From Desulfotalea psychrophila LSv54 (GTDB lineage Bacteria > Desulfobacterota > Desulfobulbia > Desulfobulbales > Desulfocapsaceae), in contig NC_006138.1 of the NCBI RefSeq assembly GCF_000025945.1, forward strand, positions 1,140,001 to 1,172,000: a DNA stretch of 32,000 nt, given 5' to 3'. A model generated the notes under the pieces. It searched no databases, was not told where the DNA came from, and was given only the letters and a program-made list of their open reading frames with translations. Shown here one piece after another: positions 1 through 20,298 of the stretch; positions within the stretch are counted from its first letter, which is position 1; the number at the start of each line of letters is the position of its first letter. A program made the position numbers and the translations under genes.

Positions 1-731
1 GCTACTATCATAATAATATTACGGGAACCTTGGTTCTCTGTGGTCTTATGGCTAAACATGGGGTGAAGAATATCATCTTCAGCTCTTCGGCTACGGTTTA
101 TGGTGATCCGGCAAGGGTTCCCATAACCGAGGACTTTCCTCTTTCCTGTGCCAACCCCTACGGTCGAACAAAGTTGATGGTGGAGGAGATTCTTGCCGAT
201 CTTCATGGGGCAGATCATGAGTGGAACGCCTGTCTGCTTCGCTATTTTAATCCGGTTGGCGCCCATAAAAGTGGCCGGATAGGGGAAGATCCAGATGGCA
301 TTCCTAATAATCTTATTCCCTATATCGCTCAGGTTGCCATTGGTCGCCTTGACTGTCTCTCGGTTTTTGGTAATGATTACCCAACGGTTGATGGCACGGG
401 GGTACGGGACTATATCCATGTGGTTGATCTGGCCAAGGGTCATGTCTGTGCTGTGAAAAAGGTTCTTGAGGGTCGGGGTGTCACAACCTACAACTTGGGC
501 ACGGGCCTTGGTTATAGTGTGCTTGAGATAGTGGATGCCTTTTCCCGGGCCTGCGGACGTGATATTGCCTATAAGATCGTGGCGAGGCGAGCTGGTGATA
601 TAGCAGCGTGCTATGCGGATTCCGCCAAGGCTCTGACAGAGCTTGGTTGGTCGGCCTCTCTGGGGCTTGCGGAGATGTGCGAAGATACCTGGCGTTGGCA
701 GGAAAATAATCCTACGGGATATCGCTCATAG
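1..731 (+). CDS. galE: UDP-glucose 4-epimerase, 5'-truncated by the window edge
   Basis: The frame is open to position 3 ([12 protein letters not shown]...). Extended-SDR epimerase motifs are present: [13 protein letters not shown] (YxxxK), [23 protein letters not shown] stop at 729-731. Confidence 0.9.
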
Positions 732-748
732 GAAATCTTGAAAAAACC

Positions 749-825
749 GGTAAATTCGATAAGAAACAGTCTCGATTGCTGTGCCTATGCTGTAGGCACA
801 GAGATCATTTATTTCGAATTTTACC
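749..825 (+). terminator. Nested inverted repeats downstream of galE (possible compound terminator)
   Basis: Outer arms GGTAAATTCGA (749-759) and TCGAATTTTACC (814-825) enclose the inner hairpin CTGTGCCT/AGGCACAG (779-801). A/T-rich sequence follows, but there is no clean U-tract. Confidence 0.3.
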
Positions 826-1169
826 TACCTTTATAATAAATTTTATTTAAAGGTTAATACTTTGTAGTAAGGGACGTTAAACGTTTCCCGACAGAGGAGG
901 TAAAACTCCTGAATTCCCCTCTGATTTGATCTTTTCCCGTAGTGGCTTCTTGCCTCTCTAAGGGAATCTGCTTTGATAAAAATAAACATCGTTTTAAAAT
1001 TATCTGCTCAACTTATCTGAGAAAAATGTAAATGAGGACCGGAATGGCTGTTATTTGAAAAAGCTATATCTGGTAAAGCTTTTTTCTTATTTTGTTTAGT
1101 AAGTGATAATGGTAGGTTCTGAAAATATATTAAGTATAAGGCAAAGTAATATTAACTATAAGGTAGGGT

Positions 1170-1661
1170 ATGTCTTTGAAAAAGTGTTCTACAATGATTT
1201 TTGGTTGCGGCAATATAACCATGGGGGATGATGGTTTTGGTCCCGCTGTGATTGATGAGTTGCATGCTCATTATGAATTGCCCGAGGGGGTACAGGCCAT
1301 CGATGCGGATACCGGTATTCGCGAGTATCTTTTTGATTATCTTCTCTCTGAAGAGGATCGGCCTGATCGTATAATTGTCTTAGATGCAGTTGATTTCCCT
1401 GATAGAAATCCTGGCGAGGTGTTCTATATCGCGCCCGATAGCATTCCTTCCCAAAAGATTCATGACTTTTCGCTTCATCAATTCCCTACAGTAAATATGT
1501 TATTAGAGTTGGAACAGTATACAGGAATGGAAATAAAGATATTGGCAGCCCAAATAGAGTGTATTCCGAAAGAAATTGCTCCTGGGCTGTCGGAACCAAT
1601 GTCAAAAGCTGTTCCTGCGGCATGTGAGATGATCTCACAAATTCTTTTAGAAAAAAGCTAA
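1170..1661 (+). CDS. NiFe-hydrogenase maturation endopeptidase (HybD/HycI/FrhD family)
   Basis: N-terminal FGCGNITMGDDGFGPAV matches the GxGNxxxxDDGxG signature of hydrogenase C-terminal processing proteases. Size is about 160 aa. It is the first gene of the hydrogenase operon, with AAGGTAGGG upstream of the ATG. Confidence 0.85.
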   Translation: MSLKKCSTMIFGCGNITMGDDGFGPAVIDELHAHYELPEGVQAIDADTGIREYLFDYLLSEEDRPDRIIVLDAVDFPDRNPGEVFYIAPDSIPSQKIHDFSLHQFPTVNMLLELEQYTGMEIKILAAQIECIPKEIAPGLSEPMSKAVPAACEMISQILLEKS

Positions 1662-1676
1662 ATGAGGTGACCTTTT

Positions 1677-3164
1677 ATGAAGTATGAATTTAAAGTCAGC
1701 GAAATAGCAGAGGAATTTGGTGTTCATTCGACGACCATAAAAAATTGGATTAAATCCGGTTCTCTTTCTGCAAAGGAAGGGCCTGGATCCAAATATCTTA
1801 TGGAGTTTAGTGACTATCAAGACTTTTGCGATCGGTTTGGAGTTGAACCAAGTGTTCGACCTCTGAACCATGTACACAAGGATCCGTGTACTATTCAACA
1901 GGAAGCACAACCTATACTTGAGCCGATGACGCTTGATGGTAAAAAGAGTGCGCTTGCAGTTGATCCATCATGGGCGTCATCCTGTCTAACCTGCGGCACC
2001 TGTGCTGCCGCCTGCCCTATTGCTGGTGTCGATGGGCTTGATCCACGTAAGATAGTGCGCATGGCAGTTTTGGGTATGGATGAGGAGTTGATAAATTCGA
2101 CCTGGCCATGGAAGTGTACCATGTGTGGCAAGTGCGAGGAGTCCTGTCCTGCAGATATTCAAATTACAGCCCTCATAAGAAAAATTCGCGGAGCCCGTGA
2201 AAGAGATCTTGTTCCAGGTCCTATTCACAAGGGTGTGATGATGTGTCTTGAGCGTGGTAACAACCTTGGTATTCCAAAGGATGACTTTGTCTTCCTTCTT
2301 GAAGAGCTTGGTGAAGAGCTTGCTGAGGATTGCTGTCCTGGTTTTGTAACTCCCGTTGAGGTTGAAGGCGCTCGGGTGATGGTTACCGTGAACTCCAAAG
2401 AACCCTTTGGTGAGCCCGATGATATGAAGTGGTGGTGGAAGATTTTTTATGCCGCGGGAGAGTCCTGGACTATTCCATCTGAGCATTGGGAAGGTGTTAA
2501 CTGGGGACTGTTTTCCGGTGACGATGAGTCACAAAAAAAGATTGTTGGTCGACTCGTAAATAATATGAGACGGCTCAAGTGTAAGGTACTGTTGCTACCC
2601 GAGTGAGGCCATGCATATTTCGCGACCCGGTCTGGGTTGCTCAAATGGTTTCCTGAAGCACTTGAAGAATTTAAGATTGTTACAGTGTTTGATCTCCTCC
2701 TCGAGTATCTCCACGAAGGAAAAATTAAGCTTGATAAAGAGCTTCATCGCAATATTCCAACCGCATATCACGATCCCTGTAACTATGGTCGTAAGTCCCT
2801 GAAGGCTTTTGGACAGGCATATTTTGAAGAGGGGCGTGAAGTAGCAAGTGCCTGTTGTGATGATCTTCGCGAGTTGAATCCAAATAGAAACGGTGCATAC
2901 TGTTGTGGTGCTGGTGGCGGTACATGGGCCTTACCGTATAGTGAAGAGCGTATTTATTATGGTCGAACCAAGGCACGACAGATTGAAGAGTCCGGGGCAA
3001 AGCTTGTTGTAGCTCCATGTCATAACTGTCGCGATCAGATTATGAAGTCCCTGAAAAAAGAGTATAGCCTTGATATTGAGGTGAAGTATCTTTGGGAACT
3101 CATTGCTGATTCTTTGATTATGCCAGGTAAGGATAAGGCAGAGCCAGTTAAAGAGCATTACTAA
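1677..3164 (+). CDS. HTH (excisionase/MerR-like) - HdrC-like (2x[4Fe-4S]) - HdrB-like (CCG domain) fusion, selenoprotein with UGA-Sec at 2604-2606
   Basis: ORF-track pieces 1677..2606 and 2637..3164 are in the same frame (both coordinates are 0 mod 3), and the only stop between them is TGA 2604. The joined reading is ...KVLLLPE-U-GHAYFATRSGLLKWFPE.... N-terminus: KVSEIAEEFGVHSTTIKNWIKSGSL (HTH). Middle: CLTCGTCAAACP and CTMCGKCEESCP. C-terminus: HDPCNYGR, CCGAGGG, APCHNCRDQ (CCG domain). GAGGTGA SD lies 6 nt before the ATG. Confidence 0.75.
2618..2645 (+). promoter_or_regulatory. SECIS-like hairpin downstream of UGA 2604
   Basis: UUU-c-GCGACCC[GGUCU]GGGUUGC-uc-AAA. The core stem is 7 bp with one G.U pair. 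The apical loop GGUCU starts 25 nt after the U of the UGA and resembles the GGUC loop I recall from E. coli fdhF SECIS. Confidence 0.55.
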
Positions 3165-3269
3165 AGTATGCATATCTATTTGGGCCTTTTGGAGCCAAAT
3201 ATTGACCAGGAATGATCTGTAAGATATTTACAGACTATCTATATTATTAATCGAGAGGAGACACCTGTC

Positions 3270-6200
3270 ATGCTGGACAAGAAGAAGGTTGGGTCGGTAA
3301 TGATTGTGGGAGGTGGAGTAACGGGCATGCAGTCAGCCCTTGATCTCGCTGATGCCGGATATTTCGTCTACCTGATTGAAAAATCAGGTGCTATCGGCGG
3401 AGCCATGGCTCAGTTGGATAAAACTTTTCCTACCAACGATTGCTCGATGTGAATTATCGCGCCTAAATTGGTTGAGTGCGGTCGGCACTTAAATATAAAG
3501 TTGATGACTCTCAGTGAAGTAACTAATATCGCAGGTTCTGCGGGTGACTTTACTGTAACTGTAAAAGAATCTCCACGTTATGTGGATATGGATAAATGTA
3601 TTGCCTGTGGTGCATGTACTGATAAATGTCCGAAGAAGGTCGATAGCGAGTATGACGAAAAGACCGGAAAGCGTAAGGCCATTTTTGTAAAGTATGCCCA
3701 GGCGGTACCACTTAAGTATCAAATTGATCCTCTGAACTGTCTGCGTCTTACCGCCATGCGTAATGGTAAGGAAAAACTTCCCTGTGGATTTTGTGAGCAG
3801 GTTTGTGACGCTGGCGCTATTAACTATAACGATACCGAAAAGACTCATGAGTTGAACGTAGGTGCTGTTGTTTTGGCTCCTGGCTTTGAGTCCCATGATC
3901 CCACCGGAGATGGTGTTTGGGGTTATGGCGTATATCCAAACGTTATTACCGCCATGCAACTGGAGAGATATCTCTCTGCCTCTGGGCCAACCGAGGGCCA
4001 TATAGTTCGTCCTTCCGATGGACAGAAAGCGCGAAAAATAGCATTTTTGCAATGTGTTGGCTCTCGTGATCAGAATCTCTGTGATAATGGTTACTGCTCT
4101 TCTGTCTGTTGTATGTATGCGATAAAAGAAGCTGTTATGGCCAAGGAACATGTAGCAGGGCTTGAAACAGACATCTTCTATATGGACATGCGTACCCATG
4201 GCAAAGAGTTTGATAAGTACATGGAGAAAGCCAAAGAGAAATCAGGCGTACGTTTCGTCCGATCTCGGGTAAATGGCGTTGAACCTCAGGGTGAGGCCGG
4301 TGATCTTCGTTTGAAGTATATGAACGAAAATGGTCATCAAATAGAAGAGTGTTATGACATGGTTGTCCTCTCTGTGGGCCTTCAAACTCCAAAGCATGTG
4401 TTGGAGCTTGCCAAGACTGCGGGTATTGAGATCACTAAGGATAACTTTGCCAAAACGCCAGATTTTGCTCCGGTCCAAACCTCTCGTGAGGGTGTTTTTA
4501 CCTGTGGTGCCTTTGCCGGTCCTAAGGATATTCCTCAGTCTGTTGTTGAGGGTTCAGCGGCAGCTGCAGCGGTTGCTGAACTGCTTGCCCCATCCCGTAA
4601 CCAGTTTACCCACTCGGTAACCTGGCCAGCAGAGCGTGATATTCGTGAGGAAGAGCCGAAGGTTGGTGTCTTTATTTGTCATTGTGGTTCTAACATTGCC
4701 GGTGTGGTTGATGTGGCAGCGGTTGAAGAGTATGCCGCAACCCTTCCTCATGTGGCCTATGTTGAGAGAAATCTCTTCTCCTGTTCTCAGGATGCTCAGG
4801 AAAAAATTGCGGCAACCATTAAGGAACAGGGTCTTAACCGTATTGTTATTGCCGCCTGTACGCCACGAACCCATGAGCCTCTGTTTCGTGAGACTCTGAA
4901 GGCAGCAGGGCTGAATGAATACCTCGTTGAGATGGCTAATATTAGAAACCATGACTCCTGGGTTCATTCCGATAACCCTAAAATGGCAACGATTAAGGCC
5001 AAGGATCTGATACGGATGGCTGCTGCCAAGGTAGTCTTTGGTGAGTCTCTTAAGCCTATCTCTGTACCCATTAACCAGACAGCTCTGATTATCGGTGGTG
5101 GTGTAGCTGGAATGACTTCTGCCCTGAATCTTGCCGAGCAGGGTTTTAATGTTAATCTTGTGGAAAAAAGCGATACCCTTGGTGGTGCTGCTTTGAAGAT
5201 TAAGCATACCTGGTCCGGTGAAGATGTTGCCTCTCAGGTGGCGACCCTTGTCGATAAGATCACCTGGAACGACAAGGTTACCGTTTTCAAAGAATCTGAA
5301 GTTGTTGCATCCGAAGGTTTTGTCGGTAACTTCAAGTCAACCATTCTCCATGGCGGTGAAGATTACAACGTTATCAAGCACGGTGTTGGTATTGTGGCAA
5401 TTGGTGGAGTCGAGTACAAGCCAAACGAGTACGGTTACGGTGAAATTGCCGGGGTAAAGACCAGTACTGAGTTTGATAATACTCCCCTCAGCCCGTCTGC
5501 CAAGACCTTTGTCTTCATTCAATGTGTTGGTTCCCGAGAGGGAGACAATATGTACTGCTCTAAGGTTTGCTGTACCCATTCTGTGCAGTCTGCCATTGAG
5601 CTGAAGGAAGCTGATCCGGCGCGTAATGTTTATATTCTCTATCGTGAGATGCGTACCTACGGTCAGCGTGAGGCATTGTATCAAAAGGCTCGTAAACTTG
5701 GTGTTATATTTATCAATTACGAGAGTCACGGTAAACCTGTGGTAAGTACGGTTGATGGTGCTATTCGAGTGGATGTTTGGGATCATGTCTTGAACTGTCC
5801 GCTGAAGATTATGGCAGATAATTTGATCCTGGCTACAGCCGTTCGGCCAAGTACTGATGCCGGAGCTATCTCTAAGCTGTACAAGGTGCCTGTTGATGCC
5901 GATGGCTTTTTTCTTGAGGCCCATGCCAAGTTGCGTCCCGTTGATTTTTCAACGGATGGAATGTATGTCGCAGGTATGGCCCATTATCCCAAGCCTATTG
6001 AAGAGTCTGTGGCTCAGGCACTTGCCGCAGCTGCCCGGGCGGCAACGGTTCTCTCTAAGACCGAGGTAACACTTGATGCTGTGAAGGCCACCGTTGATCC
6101 CGACTTTTGTGATGGCTGTGCCCTCTGTGTGGATGTTTGCCCATACGGTGCCATTACCCTTGGTTCCCGTTCGGATGATCTGCCTAGTCGTATTATCAGC

Positions 6201-6326
6201 GTTAATGAGGCGAAGTGTAAAGGCTGTGGCTTATGTCAGGCGACATGTCCTAAGAGAGGCGTCTATGTTGCTGGATTTACCATGCAACAGATAAGCAGTC
6301 AGATTGCTGCCGCTCTTGAGGTCTAG
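3270..6326 (+). CDS. hdrA: Heterodisulfide reductase subunit A-like flavoprotein, tandem (double) HdrA of about 1018 aa, selenoprotein with UGA-Sec at 3450-3452
   Basis: Pieces 3270..3452 and 3468..6326 share a frame. The joined reading is [23 protein letters not shown], which matches the HdrA FPTxDCSMCI motif with U in place of C. There are two GxGxxG FAD folds: [10 protein letters not shown] near 3300 and [10 protein letters not shown] near 5090. Other elements are an inserted ferredoxin ([12 protein letters not shown]), the internal motif [17 protein letters not shown] (the HdrA N-domain type) and a C-terminal 2x[4Fe-4S] ([24 protein letters not shown]). GAGAGGAGA SD. Confidence 0.85.
3472..3492 (+). 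promoter_or_regulatory. SECIS-like hairpin downstream of UGA 3450
   Basis: UUGAGUGC[GGUCG]GCACUUAA forms an 8-bp stem with one G.U pair. The loop starts 30 nt after the U of the UGA. Confidence 0.5.
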
Positions 6327-6377
6327 TCGTTACCTGTACATAAAATGAACATGAGGATTAAATAAGGAGTAGATCAC

Positions 6378-6800
6378 ATGAGTTTTGAGCCTAAAATCAT
6401 TGCATTTTGTTGCAACTGGTGCTCATACGCCGCAGCTGATCTGGCGGGAGTGTCCAGGATGCAGTATCCGCATAATGTACGGATTATCCGTGTTATGTGC
6501 TCAGGTATGGTTCATCCTGAATTTGTTATGGATGCCCTGCACCAGGGTGCAGACGGTGTCATGGTACTTGGCTGACACCTCGGTGAATGTCATTACCTGG
6601 ATGGTAATTATATAGCAGAGACCCGTTCTGATATGATCACGAGCATGTTGGAAGACATGGGATATGAGAAAGAACGATATGGTGTGAGTTGGGTATCTTC
6701 AGCCGAGCCGGATAAGTTTGTTAAGGCTGTGACTGAGATGACTGCCCGTATCAAGAAACTTGGACCTGTCCAAACTGAAAGCCCCGCTCAGGCGGTGTAA
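6378..6800 (+). CDS. mvhD: MvhD/VhuD-type hydrogenase delta subunit ([2Fe-2S] electron-transfer protein), selenoprotein with UGA-Sec at 6573-6575
   Basis: [36 protein letters not shown]...[22 protein letters not shown]. This is the MvhD signature GCHxGxCHY with U replacing the first Cys. The frame continues with no other stop to TAA 6798-6800. AAGGAG SD. Confidence 0.85.
6592..6608 (+). promoter_or_regulatory. SECIS-like hairpin downstream of UGA 6573
   Basis: AUUACC[UGGAU]GGUAAU forms a perfect 6-bp stem. The first loop G is 26 nt after the U of the UGA. Confidence 0.45.
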
Positions 6801-6810
6801 AGGAGGCGAT

Positions 6811-7752
6811 ATGGGTGTGAAAACAGCTATGGAATGGTTGAGCTCATGTTCTGGATGCGAAATCGCTATCCTGAATATAGGTGAAGATCTTATTCCAATT
6901 ATTACTGAAGCGTTGGATATTGTTCATGCACCGGTACTTATGGATCATAAGTACTTTGGACAGACCGGTGAGGGCCTGACCCTGGAAATACCAGAGGCAA
7001 CTATTGGTATTGTTAGCGGTGGCGTAGCCAATGAAGAGCATATCGAAGTGCTTGAGGAGATGAGAAAGAAATGTACTATTCTTATCGCCCTTGGAACCTG
7101 TGCAACCCATGGTGGTATCCCCGCTCTGATGAATGGGCAGGATCGAGCCCAGAGTTGGAAAGAGATTTATCAAACAAAGACCACCGATCCCGGGGGAGAA
7201 GTTCCCAATGTGGAAGTTCCTGCTCCTCTTGACCGTGTTTATGCCTGTGATGAGAAGGTAAAGATTGATCTGCAGTTGCCAGGATGTCCTCCAAATCCTG
7301 CCCATATTGCCGAGGTGATCTTTTCTCTTCTTGAGGACCGACCACCGGTTCTTCCTGGTAAGAGTGTTTGTGATACCTGCCCGACCAAGCGTGAGGGTAA
7401 GGGTGATGTAAGTAAGCTGAGACGTTTTCTTACAAACGCTGAATTTGAGCCAGGCGAACCTATTGATGAAATGCGCTGTCTGCTTGAGCAGGGATACCTC
7501 TGTATGGGGCCGGTAACTGCTGCAGGCTGTGCAAGAAATGGTGCTCCTAGCTGTATTGCTGCTCGCGTTCCCTGTCGTGGTTGCTTTGGGCCTGTTCGTG
7601 GCGCTGGTAATCAAATGTTGGATATGATGAACGCATTGGCAAGTAATGGAATTGATTGTAGTTCTGTTATTGATCGTCGCTCTATGTTACGCTTTTCAGG
7701 TGCGCATGGAATGCTACGGCCTGTAAAAAAAATGGTTGTTAAGGAGGACTAA
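6811..7752 (+). CDS. mvhG: Group-3c NiFe hydrogenase small subunit (MvhG-like)
   Basis: Start chosen at ATG 6811, just after AGGAGG (6801-6806) and 10 nt after the mvhD stop. The sequence MGVKTAMEWLSSCSGCEIAILN is the small-subunit proximal-cluster motif, with further Cys clusters (GTCATHGG, CPPNP, CRGCFGP). Confidence 0.85.
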   Translation: MGVKTAMEWLSSCSGCEIAILNIGEDLIPIITEALDIVHAPVLMDHKYFGQTGEGLTLEIPEATIGIVSGGVANEEHIEVLEEMRKKCTILIALGTCATHGGIPALMNGQDRAQSWKEIYQTKTTDPGGEVPNVEVPAPLDRVYACDEKVKIDLQLPGCPPNPAHIAEVIFSLLEDRPPVLPGKSVCDTCPTKREGKGDVSKLRRFLTNAEFEPGEPIDEMRCLLEQGYLCMGPVTAAGCARNGAPSCIAARVPCRGCFGPVRGAGNQMLDMMNALASNGIDCSSVIDRRSMLRFSGAHGMLRPVKKMVVKED

Positions 7753-7753
7753 G

Positions 7754-9202
7754 ATGGGAAAGGTATTAACGATTGCACCTGTTACCCGTATTGAGGGTCA
7801 CGCAAAAATTGCCATTCATTTAGATGATACGGGCAATGTGGAAAATGCATTTTTGCATATTCAGTCCCTGCGCGGATTTGAGAAGTTTATTGAGGGGCGT
7901 CCTGCAGAGGAAGTGCCTCGTCTGGTAAATAGAATTTGTGGTATCTGTCCTTGGATGCATCACATTGCCTCCAATAAGGCAGTTGATCGTTGTTTCGATG
8001 TAACCCCTACGGCAACCGGTTATAAGTTGCGTGAGTTGTGTCAGGTTTTGGCTCATGTCAACGATAAGATTCTTCACTTCTTCTTTTTGGCGGCCCCGGA
8101 TTTTGTTCTTGGACCAGATGCAGATCACTCTGTACGTAATGTTATGGGCGTTGTTAAGGCGGCTCCGGAACTTGCGTCCAAGGTTGTGAAGATGCGTCAG
8201 CTTGGTCAGATGATGTTGGAGAAATTTGCTGGCAAGGCTATTCACCCAATTGCCGGTGTTGTCGGTGGTTTTTCCAAGCCAATGGTTGAAGAGGAACGTA
8301 AGGAGTTGCTGGAAGGTGCCCGTACTCTGCTTGACTTCTCCACCTATGCCCTTGATTTTGCTATTAACAATGTATTTTCAAAGTACATGGACGTTATTGG
8401 TGAGCTTGGCGTTATTAAGACTGGTTTCCTCGGTACAGTTGATCGTCAGGATGGATCACTTCGTCTCTTCGATGGTAACCTGCGGATGATGAAGGCAGAT
8501 GGTAGCTTTGAAGAGTTTCAAAACCGTGATTATGCTGACCATATTGGTGAGCATACGGTGCCTTGGGGCTATTCTAAAATGCCATATGCCAAGTTTTGGA
8601 ATGAGGGCTTTGATATGAGCCTTGGTGCTCCAAAGGGTATTTATCGTTCTAATACCCTGGCCCGTATCAATGTTTGTGACAAGATCTCCACTCCAAAGGC
8701 CCAGGCAGCACTTGAAGCCTTCCGTGAGTTATTTGGTCGTCCTGCCCAACAGACTCTGCTTTATCATTATGCTCGCCTGATTGAGATGGTTTATGCCTGT
8801 GAGCGAACTATTGAGCTCCTCGAGTGGGATGGTATTACCGATCCTCATGTTCGTGCGGAGGTTACCCCGCGGGCAGGTCGTGGTGTGGGTGTGGTTGAGG
8901 CCCCTCGTGGTACTCTTATTCATGATTACACAACCGATGATGATGGCTGTGTTACCAGTGCAAATCTTATTGTGGGTACCACCCACAATATTGCGCCGAT
9001 GAATATGTCTGTGAGACAGGCGGCAAGTTCACTCATCAAAGATGGAAAATATGATGAGGGCATTCTTAACAGGGTAGAGATGGCTGTTCGGGCCTATGAC
9101 CCCTGAATGTCTTGCGCTACCCACCGCCTGGATGGCGGTCTTCCAGTAACTGTATCTATTATGGATAAAGAAGGTGTAGAAATTGACAGAATTGTCAAAT
9201 AA
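7754..9202 (+). CDS. mvhA: [NiFeSe] hydrogenase large subunit (MvhA/VhuA-like) with UGA-Sec at 9104-9106
   Basis: Start at ATG 7754 after AAGGAGGA. The N-terminal Ni-ligand motif is RICGICPWMH (RxCGxCxxxH). The track ORF ends ...VRAYDP at TGA 9104. The same frame continues MSCATHRLDGGLPVTVSIMDKEGVEIDRIVK to TAA 9200-9202, giving DP-U-MSC-ATH, the DPCxxCxxH C-terminal Ni-ligand motif with Sec at the first Cys. Confidence 0.9.
9123..9139 (+). promoter_or_regulatory. SECIS-like hairpin downstream of UGA 9104
   Basis: ACCGCC[UGGAU]GGCGGU forms a perfect 6-bp stem. The first loop G is 26 nt after the U of the UGA. Loop and offset are the same as in the mvhD hairpin. Confidence 0.5.
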
Positions 9203-9259
9203 TCTTCGGTAGGTTATCCTTGTCACCGTGTCATATTTGCCGTGGCGGTTTATTGAAAA

Positions 9260-9295
9260 GGCAACAGATTCTAAAACAATCTGTTGCCTTTTTTT
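9260..9295 (+). terminator. Rho-independent terminator of the hdr-mvh operon
   Basis: Perfect 11-bp stem GGCAACAGATT/AATCTGTTGCC with a 7-nt loop, followed by T7 (9289-9295). Confidence 0.75.
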
Positions 9296-9402
9296 ATGTT
9301 GTTGCGGTAAAGTGTTGGTCGGTTGTTGTTTTTTGTGGAGAGCATTGATCCTGTCCGGGTCGATATTGTAGATTGGCTCCATGGTAAATTAGAAAGGAGT
9401 AG

Positions 9403-10509
9403 GTGGACGTGATAAACCAACTTCCAAGCCCAGAAGCATTGCTTGAAGAGCTGCATCGTGTTGTAAGTAAGCCCATTCGTTTAATGGTTGTTTGTGGTAC
9501 CCATAACCGAGCCATCCTTCGGTATGGAATCAGAGAAGAGTTACCCGATTTTATCGAACTTGTTGCTGGACCTGGTTGTAGCGTCTGTGTGATGCCGACG
9601 GGACATGTTGACGCCTTTGTTAAGGTTGCCCGCCAGCCGGACGTTATTACTGCCACCTGTGAAGACCTGTTGAAGGTACGCGGGAGCAAGGAGTCTTTGG
9701 CCGATGTCCTCAATGAGGGAGTGCACCGTGTTGAAATTATCTCTTCTCCTCGTCAGGCCCTTGAGCTGGCCTATGTAGAGGAGGATAAGATTGTTGTTTA
9801 TCCTGCCGTGGGTTTTGAGGCTACGGCTCCCAGTATTGCCGAGACTATTTTAGAGGCGGCCCAAAATGGGGTGGGAAATTTTTGTGTTATTCCTTCCATT
9901 CGCCTGCTTCCACCAACCATTGATGCCCTCCTCCTTGATCCCCAGTTGAGTATTCAGGGATTGCTCTGTTCAGATCATATCAATACCATTTCTGACACCG
10001 AAGCCTATGCCGATCTTGCCCGTAAACATAGCCTGAGCTGTTGTATTGCAGGTTTTGAAAAGGCAGAGATTCTACAGGGGATTCTCAGCATGGTTAAGCA
10101 GATCCATCGTGGTGAATCCATGGTGGATGCCAGTGGTGCCATGGTTTATTCAATGGAAGAGACAGCCCGGGCCCGGAGGGTGGTGGAAGAGGTTTTCTTT
10201 CCAACGGAAACGGCTTGGAGAGGTTTGGGCTCTATTGCTGAGAGTGGTTTTGTTATCCGTGATGAGTTGGCCCTCTATGACGCCACTAAACGTTTTAATG
10301 TTCGTTTTGCTGAGGGTACGGATCAATGCATGTGTCACTGTAATGAAATTATTTCTGGACGCGCCCTGCCGCCTGACTGTCCTGCCTTTGGTATGGCCTG
10401 TACCCTGCAGAATCCCGTGGGGCCCTGTATGATTTCCAATGAGGGCATTTGTGCTGCATACTTTAAGTATAAGTTGGAGTCTTCCAGATTTTCCCGTTTA
10501 GATGTCTAG
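9403..10509 (+). CDS. hypD: Hydrogenase maturation factor HypD
   Basis: VCGTHNRA (the CGxH motif), GPGCSVCVMP (GPGCPVCV motif) and a C-terminal Cys-rich region. GTG start at 9403; GTG 9409 has better spacing to the AGGAG at 9395-9399. Confidence 0.9.
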   Translation: MDVINQLPSPEALLEELHRVVSKPIRLMVVCGTHNRAILRYGIREELPDFIELVAGPGCSVCVMPTGHVDAFVKVARQPDVITATCEDLLKVRGSKESLADVLNEGVHRVEIISSPRQALELAYVEEDKIVVYPAVGFEATAPSIAETILEAAQNGVGNFCVIPSIRLLPPTIDALLLDPQLSIQGLLCSDHINTISDTEAYADLARKHSLSCCIAGFEKAEILQGILSMVKQIHRGESMVDASGAMVYSMEETARARRVVEEVFFPTETAWRGLGSIAESGFVIRDELALYDATKRFNVRFAEGTDQCMCHCNEIISGRALPPDCPAFGMACTLQNPVGPCMISNEGICAAYFKYKLESSRFSRLDV

Positions 10510-10528
10510 TCTTATTTAGAAGGATATT

Positions 10529-10774
10529 ATGCACGAGTTTTCTCTTGCCCAGGGCCTGCACGATCAGTTGCTTGACCTTGCCCATGAACATGAGGCCCAG
10601 AGGGTGCAAAAGGCTGAAATCTGTATCGGTGAAAATGCCGGTATTGTTGTGGAATCATTTCTCTTTGGCTTTGATGTCCTTGCCAGTCAAAATGATATTA
10701 CCAGAGATACCGAGCTGGTCGTTGAGAGAGACGATGGCAGAGATCTCATCCTGATGCGTCTTGAGCTTTCTTGA
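10529..10774 (+). CDS. hypA: HypA-like nickel metallochaperone lacking the zinc-finger domain (81 aa)
   Basis: It has the N-terminal MHE Ni-binding motif (MHEFSLAQGL...), a HypA-like core (ICIGENAGIVVESFLFGFDVL) and a HypA-like C-terminal strand (LILMRLELS). There are no CxxC...CxxC motifs. AGAAGGA SD. Confidence 0.65.
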   Translation: MHEFSLAQGLHDQLLDLAHEHEAQRVQKAEICIGENAGIVVESFLFGFDVLASQNDITRDTELVVERDDGRDLILMRLELS

Positions 10775-10847
10775 GATTTTCTTGCCTGCAGTGGAGGATG
10801 TATAGGGAGAAGCGATTATTGAACTTATTGATATCTGGATTAACTAT

Positions 10848-10876
10848 TTGACTTATATACCTAATTATTAAAGAAT
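10848..10876 (+). promoter_or_regulatory. Candidate sigma-70 promoter for the mauE-rhodanese pair
   Basis: TTGACT (10848-10853), a 17-nt spacer, then AAGAAT (10871-10876), about 40 nt upstream of ATG 10919. This rests on sequence pattern only. Confidence 0.25.
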
Positions 10877-10918
10877 AGCAACTTGTTGAGGTTGTTAAAC
10901 TATTAATACGGGTGAGGT

Positions 10919-11413
10919 ATGTCTGCCAGATATCAAGATAAAAAGTACCACTATATAGACAGATCCTGTTGTTGCCTGTTGGCTGTGGTTTTTTTCTATG
11001 CAGGCATCCCCAAGTTGTTCCATCCAGTCGATTTTGCCCTGACCATTGAGGCCTATGGCATGTTGCCCGACATGCTGGTCATACCTGTTTCCTATCTCCT
11101 GCCCCTTTTTGAAGTTGTTTTAGGTCTTGCCCTCTTGCAGGGGCGGGTGGAGGGGGTATGGGCTGCCCTTTTTCTGCTCATCTCTTTTATTTTGATTTTA
11201 AGCTACGCCCTCTATCTCGGGCTTGATATTGACTGCGGTTGCTTTGGCCCCGAAGATCCGGAGCAGGCTGCCTTTTCGGGCATACGTACAGCCCTGATCC
11301 GTGATTTTCTCCTTCTTATTCCTGTCATTATCCCCCTTACCCTGCGAAAAGCATATGCGGAGCTTTGGCTGCCGCTTTTTTTAAATCCATTATTCCTTAA
11401 GGAGAAGAAATGA
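10919..11413 (+). CDS. MauE/DoxX-family integral membrane protein
   Basis: It has four hydrophobic segments and the motif DIDCGCFG, typical of MauE-type proteins. The stop overlaps the next start (ATGA). Confidence 0.65.
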   Translation: MSARYQDKKYHYIDRSCCCLLAVVFFYAGIPKLFHPVDFALTIEAYGMLPDMLVIPVSYLLPLFEVVLGLALLQGRVEGVWAALFLLISFILILSYALYLGLDIDCGCFGPEDPEQAAFSGIRTALIRDFLLLIPVIIPLTLRKAYAELWLPLFLNPLFLKEKK

Positions 11414-11934
11414 ATATTAAAGTATCGGCATTGGTTTTTGCCCTCTGTCTGGCAGTTGCAGGAAACTGTTTTGCCTTTGGTAGCTCTAAGTTTAAAAAAG
11501 AGGTAGAAAAGGAAACAGGGGCGGTCAAGCTTGTGCGTGAGGTTCAGCGTGGTGGTTACGATCTGCTCACTACAGATGAGTTGAAGAAGATGATTGATGG
11601 GGGCCAGAAGATGGTCATCGTTGATACCATGCCCTATGAGTCCAGTTATAAAAAGGCCCATCTTCCCGGTGCTGTCCAGTTTCTCTTTCCTATTCCAGAT
11701 ATGAATATCTGGGATAGCGCCGAGACAGCCGGTAAGACAGAGGCGGATTATAAGGCCCTCTTAGGTAGTGATCTGGATGCTACTATTGTGGTTTACTGTG
11801 GCTTTGTTAAGTGTACTCGCAGTCATAATGGTGCTGTCTGGGCGAAAAAATTGGGTTATAAAAACGTCTATCGCTATTCAGGTGGTATCTATGCCTGGAA
11901 GGGTGCCGGTTGTTCTGTGGCCAAGGTTAAGTAG
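11410..11934 (+). CDS. Secreted rhodanese-domain sulfurtransferase-like protein
   Basis: Signal peptide MNIKVSALVFALCLAVAGNCFA. The rhodanese fold ends in VVYCGFVKCTRSHNGAVWAKKLGYKNVYRYSGGIYAWKGAG (active-site Cys loop). Confidence 0.7.
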   Translation: MNIKVSALVFALCLAVAGNCFAFGSSKFKKEVEKETGAVKLVREVQRGGYDLLTTDELKKMIDGGQKMVIVDTMPYESSYKKAHLPGAVQFLFPIPDMNIWDSAETAGKTEADYKALLGSDLDATIVVYCGFVKCTRSHNGAVWAKKLGYKNVYRYSGGIYAWKGAGCSVAKVK

Positions 11935-11956
11935 ACTTAAGGTGTGAATGTAGTGG

Positions 11957-11984
11957 AAATGGCAGCTTGAGCTGCCATTTTTTT
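11957..11984. terminator. Hairpin plus T-tract between convergent genes
   Basis: ATGGCAGC-TTGA-GCTGCCAT is followed by a T-run to 11984, so it is strong for the + strand. On the - strand only a short U-run follows. Confidence 0.6.
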
Positions 11985-11993
11985 GTGGCCCGT

Positions 11994-12524
11994 CTATATT
12001 TCCCGTAGGTAGTCGTTTTTCAGGGTGACATAGCTTTGGGCAGACTCTTGCAGATAGTCAAGCTCATCCTCTCTCAGGGGTCTGGCCTTTTGGGCCGGGC
12101 TGCCCTGATAGAGGAAGCCGCTTTCAAGTCTCTTCCCCGGGGTGACCAGAGAACCCGCTGCCAGTAGTACATCGTCCTCTATGATGACTCCATCAAGGAC
12201 AATAGCTCCCATACCAATAAGTACCCTGTTGCCTATCTGACAGCCGTGCAGCATGGCCTTGTGACCGATGGTAACATCTGTGCCAATATCGATTCGAAAA
12301 CCATTGGGTTTTATCTTGCTCTTGCGACTGACGTGGAGGACACTTCCCTCCTGAATATTGGTGCGGGCGCCGATGGTAATGGTGTGGACATCACCGCGTA
12401 TTGCCACCAGTGGCCAGATATTGACATCGTCACCCAAGCGGACATCACCGATAACAACAGAACTGCTATCTACATAGACATTCTTGCCAACAGTGGGCAG
12501 GACTTTTAGAAATGGGCGTAGCAT
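11994..12524 (-). CDS. Gamma-class carbonic anhydrase-like / left-handed beta-helix hexapeptide-repeat protein (YrdA/PaaY-like)
   Basis: Hexapeptide repeats run throughout (VVIGDVRLGDDVNIWPLVAIRGD..., IGHKAMLHGCQIGNRVLIGMGAIV). Start chosen at ATG 12524, preceded by TAGGAG; the track extension starts at a TTG. Confidence 0.85.
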   Translation of the reverse strand: MLRPFLKVLPTVGKNVYVDSSSVVIGDVRLGDDVNIWPLVAIRGDVHTITIGARTNIQEGSVLHVSRKSKIKPNGFRIDIGTDVTIGHKAMLHGCQIGNRVLIGMGAIVLDGVIIEDDVLLAAGSLVTPGKRLESGFLYQGSPAQKARPLREDELDYLQESAQSYVTLKNDYLREI

Positions 12525-12764: not shown

Positions 12765-14915
12765 CTATTTTCTGCGCTTGGCCAGCATCTCAGCGATGTG
12801 GCGTACCTCAATATTAAGACCGTGCTTTTTCGCACCACCACGGATCTGCATAACGCAACCAGGGCAGTCTGTGACGAGAATATCGGCCTTTGTCTCCTGG
12901 ATGTTTTTTAGCTTGTTTTCAAGAAGCTGACCGGAAATTTTAGGAAACTTAGCAGAGTAGGTGCCACCAAAGCCACAGCAGACGTCTTCCTCGGCGCATG
13001 GCACATAGTCGAGCCCCGCCTTAACCATAAGTTCGCGTGGGGCATCTTTCACCCCAAGGCCACGACAGAGATGGCAGGGGGCATGGTAGGTGACCTTCTC
13101 ACCCTTGGTGGTGATGAAATCTTCCCTCTTCATCTCGATAACATCGTTCATAAAGGAGCTGTAATCAATGAACTTGTCGGTGATCTTATCCACCCGGCTG
13201 GCGTAGATAGGATCGTCGCCAATAATCTTCTTGTAGTTGTGCTTAAAGTGAGAGACACAGGAGGCACACATACTGAGGATATAATCGCAGTCACACTTCT
13301 CAAAGGCTTCCAGATTCTGAATAGCAATCTCTTTTGCAGCCTGCATCTCGCCGAGCATCTGCATGGGCAGGCCGCAGCAGGTCTGCTCCATTGGGAACTC
13401 TACGGAAACCCCCTTGTCTCTAAAGCTCTCAATGGTGGCAACGGATTGTTCCGGATAGACAAAATCCTGAACACAGCCGGCAAAGAAGGCAATCTTAATC
13501 TTGGGCTTAGCAGGGTTTTTACCGATTCTCTGCCAGATATCTCTGAAAGGTTCCTTGGCCACGGTGGGCAGGGCCCTGAAGTCATGGCTGGGGAAGAAGA
13601 CCATGGGCAGATGACGCATGAAGCCGTCTTTGCCCTTGAGAGGTTTTTGGGCGGTCTGGGCGATGCGGAGGAACTTGTGGAAGAGTTTACGGTTCTTCAG
13701 CATCTTGCCGGCCAGGGCAGAGTAGAGCGGATGTCCTGCCTTGTCCTGAATTCTGATGTGAATCTCTTTGATCAGGGCTGGCAGGTCAATGCCGGCTGCA
13801 CATACCTCCTTACAGGCGCCACAGTTGATACAGTTCTGGACCAGATTTTTGGCCTTCTCTTCACCGTGGAAGAAATAGGTGAGGATGAGACCGATGGCAC
13901 CGATATAGATATGGCCCATCTTGTGTCCGCCAACCATTCGGTATACGGGGCAGACATTGGCACAGGCCCCGCAGCGAACACAGGCGAGTACCTGAGAGAA
14001 CTGAGGGTCTTTGGCCATGGCACTACGACCGTTATCGAGGAAGATATAGTGCATCTTCTTGCCGGTGTCGGTGCTGGCACATTCATTGGCACCGGTTACC
14101 CAGGTGACATAGGAGGTGAGACCCTGGCCGGTGGCATTACGGGGGAGGGCCTTGAGGATGCGCAGGGCATCGTGCATATTTGCGGTAAGCTTTTCAAGTC
14201 CCATCAGGGCAACGTGAACGCGTGGCACGGTACTTGCCATTCGGGCGTTACCTTCGTTGGTGACAATGCCGATGGTACCGGTTTCAGCAATGGCAAAGTT
14301 ACCACCGGAAAAACCCATATCGGCCTTGACGAATACGCCACGAAGTTCCTCACGGGCCACCCTGACAAGGGTTGTAATATCATCATTTTGCTTCTTGCCA
14401 GTAACATCACTGAAGAGATCACGCACCTGGTAGCGAGAGAGGTGGATGGCAGGCACAACCATGTGGCTGGGGCCCTCGTGGCGGAGCTGGATGATGTATT
14501 CGCCAAGATCACTCTCTGTTACCTCAAAACCCTCGTCTTCGAGGTAGTGAGTAAGGAGGGTTTCCTCGGAGGTCATGGACTTAGCCTTAACCACCGACTG
14601 GCAATTTTCATCTCTGGCGATCCGGGCAATCAGCTCATTTGCTGCCTGGGCATCCTTTGCCAGGTGAACAACGGCACCGTTTTTCTCGGCGTTCTTTTTA
14701 AACTGGGCGTAGAGCGCGTCAAGGTTTTTTACAGCCTCTTTTTTGGCGCAGGCGATTTCGCCTATGAGCTTTTTGTCATCGATGCCGGCAAATGCCTTGT
14801 GTCTGCTCTCCTTATAGGAGATGGCAAATTTGTCCATCATGCTTCTGAGAAAGTCATCGTTAAGGGCTTCGTCGAGCTCTGTTCTGTACTGGGATAGGTT
14901 TTTAGCAGTTTGCAT
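12765..14915 (-). CDS. Fused LutB-LutA (LldF-LldE) lactate-utilisation iron-sulfur protein, 716 aa
   Basis: Start at ATG 14915 (MQTAKNLSQYR) after GGAGGAAG. LUD/DUF162 region: SDLGEYIIQLRHEGPSHMVVPAIH. Two ferredoxin motifs: CVRCGACANVCP and CINCGACKEVC. Then two CCG domains: FFAGCVQDF, CCGLP, YHAPCHLCRG, CCGFGGTYS, DCPGCVMQ. This is the same architecture I recall for the roughly 717-aa Desulfovibrio LldEF-type protein. Confidence 0.85.
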   Translation of the reverse strand: MQTAKNLSQYRTELDEALNDDFLRSMMDKFAISYKESRHKAFAGIDDKKLIGEIACAKKEAVKNLDALYAQFKKNAEKNGAVVHLAKDAQAANELIARIARDENCQSVVKAKSMTSEETLLTHYLEDEGFEVTESDLGEYIIQLRHEGPSHMVVPAIHLSRYQVRDLFSDVTGKKQNDDITTLVRVAREELRGVFVKADMGFSGGNFAIAETGTIGIVTNEGNARMASTVPRVHVALMGLEKLTANMHDALRILKALPRNATGQGLTSYVTWVTGANECASTDTGKKMHYIFLDNGRSAMAKDPQFSQVLACVRCGACANVCPVYRMVGGHKMGHIYIGAIGLILTYFFHGEEKAKNLVQNCINCGACKEVCAAGIDLPALIKEIHIRIQDKAGHPLYSALAGKMLKNRKLFHKFLRIAQTAQKPLKGKDGFMRHLPMVFFPSHDFRALPTVAKEPFRDIWQRIGKNPAKPKIKIAFFAGCVQDFVYPEQSVATIESFRDKGVSVEFPMEQTCCGLPMQMLGEMQAAKEIAIQNLEAFEKCDCDYILSMCASCVSHFKHNYKKIIGDDPIYASRVDKITDKFIDYSSFMNDVIEMKREDFITTKGEKVTYHAPCHLCRGLGVKDAPRELMVKAGLDYVPCAEEDVCCGFGGTYSAKFPKISGQLLENKLKNIQETKADILVTDCPGCVMQIRGGAKKHGLNIEVRHIAEMLAKRRK

Positions 14916-15508
14916 TACACTTCCTCCAAAAGAAGAATATGGAGATAGAGGGGGCCATGGGCGCCAACGGTAAGAACACGCTCGACATCTGCGGTACGAC
15001 TGGGTCCGGTGATGAAGGCTGTGTAGTCTGCCTTTTTCATCCAACCCGTGAGGATGTCTTCAATATCGTAGGCGTCAGCAACAATTTTTGCTACGGGGAG
15101 AACGGCAATATGTGCTTCGCTTACCATGGTGGCAAGGCGTAACTCTTCGTTTGGGCAGTTGAGAACAATTGTGCCTGTGTCGATAATACCGTAGTCGGCA
15201 AAGGTGAATCCGATGTCAACGCCACCGAGGTAGGAGCGCATATTGTTCTTGATAAGCTTAAAGTCCTTAGCATCAGCTAGGCCTTTAAGGCTTGCAAACT
15301 GGTCATCGCTCAGGGTCGGGGCAGCAATAATTTTACCTGGTTTATTGGAAAGATCCTTCGGGCATCCGGGAAAAGGCTTACGCTCTTCCTTTTCAGCACA
15401 GAGGTCTACAGCATATTTATATGCTTCTTCCATTGAAGAGACCCTGGCCACTGAGGCATGAACTGCCTCAGCCCTGTCGCTGAAAAGTTGTATGTCTTTT
15501 TCTGTCAT
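14915..15508 (-). CDS. lutC: LutC/LldG-type lactate-utilisation protein (LUD domain)
   Basis: 197 aa, with a LUD-domain-like sequence. The stop overlaps the downstream ATG (TAATG), which implies translational coupling to lutBA. Confidence 0.75.
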   Translation of the reverse strand: MTEKDIQLFSDRAEAVHASVARVSSMEEAYKYAVDLCAEKEERKPFPGCPKDLSNKPGKIIAAPTLSDDQFASLKGLADAKDFKLIKNNMRSYLGGVDIGFTFADYGIIDTGTIVLNCPNEELRLATMVSEAHIAVLPVAKIVADAYDIEDILTGWMKKADYTAFITGPSRTADVERVLTVGAHGPLYLHILLLEEV

Positions 15509-15632
15509 TTTTGTTTCCTTGTACGCGAGATAATTTTTTGTTGCGGCGATACCTGACCCTATCCTATCTTTAGATGAGGCCTGTTTTTCGTCCCTGGATC
15601 AGAGTGTCTTTTGAAGGCCGCACTGATTCGGG

Positions 15633-15660
15633 AAAACTCCCGCTAAACTGATAGCGGGAG
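15633..15660 (-). terminator. Hairpin plus short U-run between glcF-like and lutC (attenuator or partial terminator)
   Basis: Perfect 9-bp stem CTCCCGCTA/TAGCGGGAG with a 6-nt loop, followed on the - strand by TTTT. It begins 9 nt after the glcF-like stop. Confidence 0.4.
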
Positions 15661-15668
15661 GGGTACTG

Positions 15669-16964: not shown

Positions 16965-16969
16965 TTTTA

Positions 16970-18352: not shown

Positions 18353-18434
18353 CTTTTCTCCTGTAAAATATATGATAATAATAACGTTGCCGGCAGGGAT
18401 AGGTGGCTAATCCTGCCGGTTGGTGAGTTTTTAA

Positions 18435-20147: not shown

Positions 20148-20298
20148 GTTTTCTCCTTGACTAGTAATCGTGAACTGTCTGTTACAGTGAAGCATTTTCA
20201 CCAGGATAAAAGCCTGTGTATTCTTTAAGGTGCCAATAAAAGAGAATGCTTTTCTGCCTGTCACTCTGTGTAAATATAGAGAGCTTATGCTCTATCTT

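Follow-up and report, generated by a model that had tools for sequence, protein, structure and literature searches.

A helix-turn-helix domain fused to an HdrD-type selenoprotein in a hydrogenase–heterodisulfide reductase operon of Desulfotalea psychrophila

The 32,000-nt stretch of the Desulfotalea psychrophila LSv54 genome analysed here (contig NC_006138.1, positions 1,140,001 to 1,172,000 of the forward strand; hereafter the window) carries a six-gene operon that comprises hycI, hth-hdrD, a fused double hdrA, mvhD, mvhG and mvhA and that encodes four selenoproteins. The second gene, hth-hdrD, encodes a protein in which a helix-turn-helix (HTH) domain precedes an iron-sulfur subunit of the heterodisulfide reductase (Hdr) type. 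In relatives, the operon is preceded by regularly phased TGTGC repeats. Here, we describe the protein, the repeats and the lineage of the window, in which both the HTH and the upstream region deviate, and weigh what the HTH may do.

The HTH-HdrD gene and protein

Positions 1677–3164 of the plus strand form a single 495-codon frame, with the sole internal TGA at 2604–2606 and a TAA stop at 3162–3164. A Shine-Dalgarno sequence read from the DNA, GAGGTGA (1664–1670, plus strand), ends 6 nt before the ATG. In relatives, tgaggtga is conserved upstream of the corresponding ATG, and some relatives instead have an ATGA stop/start overlap with the upstream HycI gene. Conservation of the protein starts at residue 1. 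A preliminary description of this DNA, made from the letters alone, had considered GAGGTGA the best ribosome-binding site and the fusion apparently real. The continuous frame, the conserved Shine-Dalgarno sequence and start, and the residue conservation from position 1 bear this out, and a start at or after Met84 (nt 1926) is disfavoured by the conservation of the upstream start. On these comparative grounds, the fusion is confirmed as real and as translated from the HTH start. Homology further shows the predicted product to be a 495-aa selenoprotein, the HdrD-type (fused HdrC and HdrB) iron-sulfur subunit of a hydrogenase/heterodisulfide reductase complex.

The protein begins with an HTH_17 winged helix, which a disordered linker of about 40 aa joins to a core with two [4Fe-4S] motifs; towards the C-terminus, a degenerate CCG half precedes the complete CCG domain. 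Pfam places HTH_17 at residues 6–45, Fer4_8 at 100–161 (E 1.4e-11) and CCG at 363–455 (E 1.2e-9). The winged HTH (residues 1–55; 1677–1841, plus strand) is BldC/Xis-like and has the recognition helix GVHSTTIKNWI. HTH_17 (PF12728) scores 27.8 bits on the domain alone and 24.4 bits on the full protein, with a gathering threshold of 27 bits. The TIGR01764 excisionase domain matches at E 7e-5 with 23.1 bits, below its cut-off of 28.8, and the NCBIfam model HTH_BldC reaches 17.4 bits, far below its cut-off of 77. The AlphaFold2 model of residues 1–65 has a predicted local distance difference test score (pLDDT) of 86.6, with values of about 90 for residues 1–54, and the element order beta-alpha-alpha-beta-beta-alpha; the model of a 73%-identical homologue (P0001) shows the same winged-helix fold. 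The closest structures found by Foldseek were Xis (4j2n), BldC (6ama/6amk), RacA (5i44), the MerR-family protein NmlR and lambda gpNu1. Matches to the BldC/Xis-type fold have probabilities of 0.99–1.0 and TM-scores of up to 0.76, and sequence matches in the PDB agree. The excisionase/MerR-type HTH that the preliminary description had read in residues 1–55 is thus supported by the predicted fold and its structural neighbours, with profile scores that lie just above or below the thresholds, and an HTH fold is present within residues 1–60.

In an alignment of 114 full-length homologues, which underlies all column counts given below, the HTH columns A11, G15, H17, T20, N23, W24, G28, G37 and C51 are invariant, and R18, N19, R22 and Y40 are nearly so. 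The HTH of the family is basic, with a median isoelectric point (pI) of 8.98 and a net charge of +4 over the recognition helix and wing. The linker that follows (residues 56–95; 1842–1961, plus strand) shows low column identity, varies from 30 to 43 aa in length and is predicted to be disordered; in the P0001 model, pLDDT falls below 50 for residues 63–78. An exhaustive search of representative sequences with the HTH alone returned fragments of the HTH-HdrD family and proteins with multiple HTH_17 repeats. No other enzyme fusion was seen among these matches, which were not domain-scanned. Outside the family, the best matches (P0135, P0139, P0143–P0152 and others) are proteins of 200–1300 aa with 4–9 tandem HTH_17-like stretches. 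A separate word-indexed protein search with the HTH returned only fragments. One of these comes from a locus (L086) in an assembly riddled with frameshifts. At positions 5001–5300 of another such locus, from a Desulfobulbus-type metagenome-assembled genome (L087), an in-frame TAA directly after Cys51 parts a 51-aa HTH from the HdrD core. The separation could be genuine, or reflect a pseudogene or faulty assembly; the upstream TGTGC array is retained.

The iron-sulfur core begins with an HdrC-like module (1974–2159, plus strand), which was identified by Fer4_8 and contains two CX2CX2CX3C [4Fe-4S] motifs (C103, C106, C109 and C113; C147, C150, C153 and C157). All eight Cys residues are invariant, and HdrC sequences in the PDB match the module at E values of about 1e-17 to 1e-18. 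The next segment (2229–2621, plus strand) is a degenerate N-terminal CCG-like half, defined by column counts, with C190, C220, C302, Sec310 and H312. C190 is kept in 103/114 and C220 in 96/114 sequences, H312 in 112/114, and C302 is invariant; the last two are additions relative to the CCG pattern. This half does not amount to a second complete CCG motif, as the second Cys of the CX2C is absent (C219 is found in 5/114). By pattern, it parallels the N-terminal CCPAPG ... TECNGC of HdrB, with PE-U-GH at the place of TECNGC. The C-terminal CCG domain (2763–3041, plus strand; C368 ... C409 C410 G411 ... C448 xx C451) is complete, matches Pfam CCG and constitutes a predicted non-cubane [4Fe-4S] site. 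Its Cys residues are all invariant, and it aligns to the C-terminal CCG of HdrB and to EtfD. The predicted structure of P0001 (pLDDT 89) matches Mycobacterium smegmatis EtfD, LutA, HdrB and HdrC in Foldseek. All motifs quoted for the protein at the outset (CLTCGTCAAACP, CTMCGKCEESCP, CCGAGGG, PCHNCRDQ and PE-U-GHA) were found again.

The highest NCBIfam matches are HmcF (E 2e-61), TmcB (9e-53) and DsrK (2e-38), followed by HdrC. None of the equivalog cut-offs of the first three families is reached (HmcF, 208 bits versus 750; TmcB, 179 versus 735; DsrK, 132 versus 400). The premise that HdrB and HdrC are normally separate subunits did not hold. The fused class, which includes HdrD, DsrK, HmcF, TmcB and BamD, is large, and a fused HdrC and HdrB is ordinary.

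The internal TGA (2604–2606, plus strand) corresponds to residue 310 in LLLPE-U-GH, where homologues carry Cys or, more rarely, Ser. Homology runs on across the UGA. In the alignment, 89 of the 114 homologues have Cys at this position and 16 have Ser. At the nucleotide level, codon 310 is TGA in 53 of 75 species-representative loci, so that most of these loci encode selenocysteine (Sec). This majority is invisible in protein databases, since gene callers break the gene at that codon, as seen in products of 309 aa (P0061, P0108, P0114 and P0117); the splitting affects most members, and the family is thus systematically mis-annotated. A hairpin of the Sec insertion sequence (SECIS) type, GCGACCC-GGUCU-GGGUUGC in the predicted fold, lies at 2622–2640 on the plus strand and begins 18 nt after the UGA. 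It is kept in 54/54 TGA orthologues with compensatory changes (ACCCGG/CCGGGT, GACCAGG/TGGTC and GACTAGG/TAGTC) and has largely disappeared from the 22 non-Sec orthologues (mean folding free energy of −10.2 versus −5.9 kcal/mol). In four loci (L048, L049, L059 and L071), Sec is replaced by Cys, Gly, Leu or Thr while a SECIS-like hairpin is retained downstream; these fossil hairpins imply recent loss of Sec. An Rfam scan of window positions 1–12000 at E≤1 returned no match, neither a curated SECIS nor a leader model. The genes selA, selB, selC and selD are not within the 32-kb window, and the presence of the Sec machinery is argued indirectly from three further Sec genes in the operon. As judged by homology and hairpin covariation, the UGA at 2604 is a Sec codon. 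Its proposed position in PE-U-GHA of the degenerate first CCG repeat is borne out by the column counts.

The other genes of the operon lie on the plus strand as well. The first encodes a HycI-type hydrogenase maturation protease (1170–1661; Pfam HycI, E 2e-22). Its start is ambiguous, as ATG 1194 and the preceding AAGAAGTGTTCTAC are conserved in the two clade-mates of the window (L084 and L085), and ATG 1194 may be the true start. Downstream of hth-hdrD, translation reveals a fused double HdrA (3270–6326) with a Sec TGA at 3450–3452 (DCSM-U-I) and a hairpin after the UGA, followed by an MvhD/FlpD-type [2Fe-2S] adaptor (6378–6800) with a Sec TGA at 6573–6575 (VLG-U-HLGEC), whose orthologues match Pfam FlpD. 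The operon ends with an MvhG-type [NiFe] hydrogenase small subunit (6811–7752), likewise read from the translation and with orthologues that match Oxidored_q6, and an MvhA-type [NiFeSe] large subunit (7754–9202) with a TGA at 9104–9106 (DP-U-MSCATH) and orthologues that match NiFeSe_Hases. About 18–20 nt after each of the four UGAs of the operon lies a hairpin whose apical loop carries GGU or GGA. The MvhADG-HdrA-type gene set is therefore complete, with HdrA, MvhD and the small and large [NiFe(Se)] subunits co-encoded. No membrane cytochrome b or NrfD-type partner is found in the operon, in which HycI, HdrAA, MvhD, MvhG and MvhA alone accompany HTH-HdrD.

Phased TGTGC repeats and the lineage that lacks them

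In the 400 nt upstream of orthologous operons, the hexamer TGTGCA/TGCACA is enriched 9-fold (4.8 versus 0.54 per kb). Pairs of TGTGC on the same strand are spaced by 9 nt 28 times and by 18 nt 6 times, with no other spacing seen more than 3 times. A pair at this phasing occurs in 25 of 63 upstream regions, with 0.1 expected from shuffled sequences. The 1.13 Mb of locus sequence examined contain 41 exact pairs with 9-bp phasing, and 39 of them are found no more than 450 nt before the first gene of the operon. When up to one mismatch is allowed, a pair is found within the same distance in 61/68 loci whose HTH carries the HRNT helix (described below), compared with about 6% expected from a background of 0.142 per kb. 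The arrays recur in several orders with flanking sequences that vary by group; 29 of 36 run antisense to the operon. One array, from a Desulfobulbus-type locus, is located right downstream of a −35/−10-like pair, which is the position of an operator over the transcription start. The genes upstream of the operon vary between loci, and no conserved regulator gene adjoins it. No description of these repeats was found in the literature retrieved, and the phased TGTGC element upstream of HTH-HdrD operons is a new result. A metagenome scan with TTGTGCGANNTGTGCAT returned 120 loci, of which one (L110) is the operon and the rest, from seawater, gut and soil, look like chance matches; the scan is thus uninformative on operator specificity.

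Each BldC subunit takes a 9-bp site, and the sites are arranged head-to-tail as direct repeats. The HTH of HTH-HdrD shares the fold of the small BldC/Xis winged-helix binders, neither possesses a coiled-coil dimerisation helix, and direct repeats at 9-bp phasing stand before most operons of the family, those of the window and its two clade-mates excepted. In contrast to BldC, to whose family it does not belong by sequence, the domain is fused to a 400-aa iron-sulfur enzyme, the repeat core is TGTGC rather than AATT-N4-C, and its DNA binding is a prediction. Taken together, the phased repeats and the BldC/Xis-like fold favour an autoregulatory trigger enzyme at the level of the family.

The lineage of the window is the exception. 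Its recognition helix reads HSTTIKNW, compared with HRNT(I/V)RNW in the 68 other loci, and its wing reads SKY instead of RRY. The corresponding substitutions are R18S, N19T, R22K and R38S, whereas H17, T20, W24, G28, G37 and C51 are retained. With a pI of 5.19, the HTH of the window is the most acidic of the 114. No phased TGTGC/GCACA pair is present in window positions 732–1200, and none is present upstream in L084 or L085. The TGTGC-type site TGTTTGCACAATG of more distant relatives reads TGTTCTACAATG at the homologous position of the window, near the HycI start. A scan of the window for TTGTGCACAA with up to 2 mismatches gave 12 matches, with 15.7 expected, and the sole match near the upstream region of the operon is a 2-mismatch site at 1870, inside the hth-hdrD coding sequence. 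The preliminary description had named positions 732–1169 as the DNA that the HTH might bind; no recognisable operator lies there. An alternative 9–11-bp phased repeat common to the three upstream regions of the clade was not found either, in a comparison of only three sequences.

The upstream region of the window contains a promoter-like block, CTTATTTTGTTTAG ... GTGATAATGGTAGGTTC (1085–1118, plus strand), which is conserved in the three clade loci and has no TGTGC array. It aligns with the cTTGCAC ... TGGTATTTT block of near relatives. A consensus scan of positions 700–3400 for sigma-70 promoters and terminators gave chance-level matches only. Two further candidates were rejected, a sigma-54 promoter at GGCACTGTTTGCA, in which the spacing from GG to GC is N8 and not the required N10, and a DnaA box at TTGTGCACA, which has 6/9 matches to TGTGGATAA. 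A 22-nt tandem direct repeat, ATATTAAGTATAAGGCAAAGTA / ATATTAACTATAAGGTAGGGTA, at 1127–1170 abuts the annotated HycI start; neither clade-mate (L084, L085) conserves it. An inverted repeat, GATTGCTGTGCCTA / TAGGCACAGAGATC, at 774–806 is located just past a truncated galE-like gene and is probably the terminator of that gene. It contains one TGTGC and one GCACA, which are palindromic and do not form a phased direct repeat.

The altered helix and the absence of repeats in 3/3 clade loci fit an HTH that reads the repeats. To judge from the sequences, the DNA target of the HTH in the window is either different or lost. The autoregulator proposed in the preliminary description thus gains support from the family, through the repeats in 61/68 loci and the BldC/Xis-like fold; the window itself is the exception, with no repeats, a changed helix and an acidic HTH.

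Distribution and related systems

In about 70 species loci from Desulfobulbales, Syntrophobacterales and Desulfarculales, HTH-HdrD is always located directly before the double HdrA. MvhD follows wherever the contig extends far enough, MvhA is present in most loci, and HycI usually precedes HTH-HdrD. The survey of orthologues proposed at the outset thus shows that the HTH is kept across operon-bearing relatives. The closest homologues without an HTH, from Desulfobacteraceae, have a 65%-identical core with Sec in the same PE-U-GH and the same SECIS, and are not followed by HdrAA-Mvh genes. The HTH is therefore found only where the gene sits in the HycI/HTH-HdrD/double-HdrA/MvhD/MvhG/MvhA operon, which indicates that it goes with the hydrogenase-Hdr operon. 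The HTH-less Sec paralogues occur as lone genes (for example, L079 9995–11296; also in L074–L083). The paralogue in L079 stands beside a divergent rnf cluster, in which an RnfB-like gene is fused to a GltD-like module.

More than 100 clusters of full-length homologues (50–73% identical) carry a precomputed PF12728 match, and at least 504 relatives were found among species genomes of Desulfobulbales, Syntrophobacterales, Desulfarculales and Desulfacinum. Some members are automatically annotated as "excisionase family DNA binding protein" or "helix-turn-helix domain-containing protein". The architecture is thus common and auto-annotated, an outcome that the preliminary description, which knew of no characterised Hdr catalytic subunit with a DNA-binding domain, had named as evidence against its reading. 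No paper describing the HTH fusion was found; a literature search on HdrD or heterodisulfide reductase with an HTH or DNA-binding domain returned none.

The gene itself has been catalogued. From Syntrophobacter fumaroxidans and Desulfotalea psychrophila, Zhang et al. (2006; PMC1794560) described the deltaproteobacterial glpC-hdrA-frhD-frhG-frhA operon, whose "Fe-S oxidoreductase (GlpC)" contains Sec, and a 2026 selenoproteome review (PMC13188914) lists the UGH motif for the GlpC-like selenoprotein and calls its role unclear. A Sec-containing HdrD is also known from Db. autotrophicum. The parts of the two papers that concern this selenoprotein describe the same gene family, the same operon with four selenoprotein genes and the same U-G-H Sec. 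Sequence comparison accordingly places HTH-HdrD in the "Fe-S oxidoreductase (GlpC)-like, UGH motif" family. In those parts, the protein is treated solely as a selenoprotein and no mention of an HTH was met, although an HTH was not specifically sought there. The gene, its Sec and the operon are thus already known and the HTH is present in domain databases, whereas the HTH fusion seems to be unstudied.

HTH-HdrD shares the order of two cubane motifs followed by CCG domains with methanogen HdrD (of HdrDE) and HdrB plus HdrC (of HdrABC), and its HdrA and MvhADG partners are those of MvhADG-HdrABC. It differs from the methanogen proteins in that only its C-terminal CCG is complete and in its Sec and HTH; CoM-S-S-CoB is not expected as a substrate in these bacteria. 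With DsrK, HmcF and TmcB, it shares a single complete CCG and a motif of the (T/G)ECGH type, which reads PE-U-GH in HTH-HdrD. The differences from these proteins lie in the partner, which is a soluble HdrA-Mvh, in the absence of a membrane cytochrome b from the operon, and in the HTH. Barbosa et al. (PMC10861901) proposed the (T/G)ECGH cysteine as the catalytic thiol of the one-cluster proteins DsrK, HmcF and TmcB. Sec310 was matched to this cysteine by motif rather than by residue-level alignment. By analogy with DsrK, we favour Sec310 as a free reactive selenol over a role as a ligand of a distal cluster (C190/C220/C302/U310).

A third relative is BamD of the class II benzoyl-CoA reductase BamBCDEFGHI, an HdrD-like protein that is bound to the fused double HdrA BamE and stands beside the Sec-containing, MvhD-like BamF. 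The distal non-cubane cluster of BamD is often disrupted by Cys-to-Ser changes, and this erosion parallels the Ser310 of 16/114 HTH-HdrD homologues; the two were compared by description and no BamD sequence was aligned. In contrast to HTH-HdrD, BamD carries no HTH according to the preprint that describes it and passes electrons to electron-transfer flavoprotein, and its complex uses BamGHI instead of a hydrogenase.

Beyond the operon, HypD and a short HypA come after mvhA. The HypA-like frame (10529–10774) has 81 aa, covers positions 1–68 of the 112-position HypA profile and may lack the C-terminal metallochaperone part. Directly after the hyp genes, positions 10919–11934 encode a MauE-family membrane protein and then a rhodanese-domain protein with a signal-like N-terminus. 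A lactate-utilisation cluster on the minus strand (12765–20264) contains two more CCG-domain proteins, namely a fusion of LUD, 2x[4Fe-4S] and 2xCCG (LdhH/LutB-LutA-like) and a GlcF-like iron-sulfur subunit, together with LutC, a GlcD-like FAD oxidase and a lactate permease. The cluster adjoins genes for a sigma-54 response regulator and a PAS hybrid histidine kinase (20609–24668).

Proposed function and alternatives

By homology, H2 would be oxidised by MvhAG and the electrons would pass via MvhD to the flavin of HdrA, where they would be bifurcated. The high-potential electron would then travel through the two cubane clusters of HTH-HdrD to the non-cubane cluster in the C-terminal CCG domain. 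At this predicted non-cubane site, a disulfide or trisulfide would be reduced, for which a DsrC-type substrate is the usual guess, and Sec310, at the position of the (T/G)ECGH cysteine, would act as the reactive chalcogen. To judge from its fold and the cis element, the tethered BldC/Xis-type HTH would bind the TGTGC repeats with 9-bp phasing head-to-tail and thereby autoregulate its own operon. In the lineage of the window, this autoregulatory circuit would be altered or lost.

Most likely, then, the HTH is a putative DNA-binding module that would make the subunit an autoregulator, in the manner of the trigger enzyme PutA. PutA is a flavoenzyme that binds DNA through an N-terminal domain and represses the operon in which it is encoded. 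HTH-HdrD resembles it as a redox enzyme with a small N-terminal DNA-binding domain and a candidate operator before its own operon, the regulatory link being suggested by the sequence. The fold of the PutA domain, in contrast, is ribbon-helix-helix, and its chemistry is different. We give the explanation as a whole, an HdrD-type Sec subunit with an HTH autoregulator that acts through TGTGC repeats and whose target has changed or been lost in the lineage of the window, a probability of about 0.5.

Several points weigh against this explanation. A catabolic and presumably abundant enzyme subunit would be unusual as a specific transcription factor. An unlinked regulator might be what binds the TGTGC repeats, and an RNA-level element in the 5´ untranslated region would also give the orientation bias of 29/36 arrays. 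The co-variation of helix and repeats counts as a single evolutionary event because it is seen in one lineage. The window has neither the repeats nor a basic HTH, yet the domain is conserved in its clade, which would also fit a role other than DNA binding. On the enzymatic side, the scores for HmcF, TmcB and DsrK are so far under the equivalog cut-offs that a substrate cannot be transferred from those families, and Ser or another residue at position 310 in about 20% of homologues indicates that Sec or Cys is not indispensable.

A possible, though doubtful, alternative is that the HTH is a protein-protein or assembly module, which would dock HdrD on the double HdrA or on MvhD or recruit a protein substrate, while the repeats would serve an unlinked regulator of hydrogen metabolism. 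The strict co-occurrence of the HTH with the HdrAA-Mvh context and its absence from the stand-alone paralogues would be expected for such a module. A winged-helix motif is known as an interface in class II benzoyl-CoA reductase, where that of BamF contacts BamI. The invariant Cys51 is not a feature of HTH_17, and the clade of the window constrains the HTH despite its acidity and the absence of repeats. However, the family keeps the hallmarks of DNA contact of HTH_17 (the basic recognition helix, the RRY wing and the net charge of +4), and the nearest folds are all DNA binders. The HTH is carried on a variable, disordered linker of 30–43 aa instead of being rigidly packed. The 9-bp phasing of the repeats is the binding mode of BldC, and the operon has no other conserved regulator gene to which the repeats could be assigned.

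For the lineage of the window, the HTH could alternatively be a decaying or re-purposed remnant that has lost autoregulation and persists for folding or assembly, which we consider unlikely. Its three clade loci are all without an array, compared with 61/68 loci elsewhere that have one, and TGTTTGCACAATG of relatives has become TGTTCTACAATG. The four substitutions R18S, N19T, R22K and R38S, the lowest pI of the 114 and the absence of an alternative phased repeat common to the three upstream regions point in the same direction. Conversely, H17, T20, W24, G28, G37 and C51 are kept, and within the clade the HTH evolves no faster than the catalytic core (78–97% versus 82–95% identity). Three sequences are also too few for a new operator to be detected.

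Of low probability is a redox-gated factor, in which a disulfide or selenenyl-sulfide of the invariant Cys51, on the final helix of the HTH, with Sec/Cys310, or reduction of Cys51 by the non-cubane cluster, would gate the head-to-tail polymerisation of the HTH on the TGTGC repeats. The flow of electrons through the bifurcating complex would in this way set the switch. If it were true, HTH-HdrD would be the first iron-sulfur/selenium trigger enzyme of the Hdr family and would link bifurcation directly to transcription. It is very improbable that the HTH holds the hydrogenase-Hdr complex at the nucleoid or chromosome in a RacA-like manner and without a transcriptional role: RacA is indeed among the nearest neighbours in structure and sequence, but the confinement of the repeats to the region upstream of their own operon within 1.13 Mb of flanks is the signature of a local operator and not of dispersed anchors. 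An artefact, that is, a mis-joined frame, a TGA-truncated pseudogene or an internal-Met start with no fusion protein, is extremely unlikely, because the 309-aa products that gene callers obtain by splitting at the UGA are outweighed by the homology across it, the covarying SECIS after it, the three more Sec genes in the operon, and the conserved Shine-Dalgarno sequence, start and residues from position 1.

Sulfate reducers, syntrophs and sulfur disproportionators possess few redox modules that are as numerous and as little understood as complexes of the HdrA/HdrD type. That Sec is found in the place of the (T/G)ECGH cysteine lends support to the view that this residue, and not a second non-cubane cluster, carries out the thiol chemistry of DsrK-like enzymes. 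Should the HTH bind the phased TGTGC repeats, a widespread complex would regulate itself through its own catalytic subunit. This would provide an experimental handle on when cytoplasmic hydrogen-dependent bifurcation is deployed, and would add an iron-sulfur selenoprotein to the short list of trigger enzymes.

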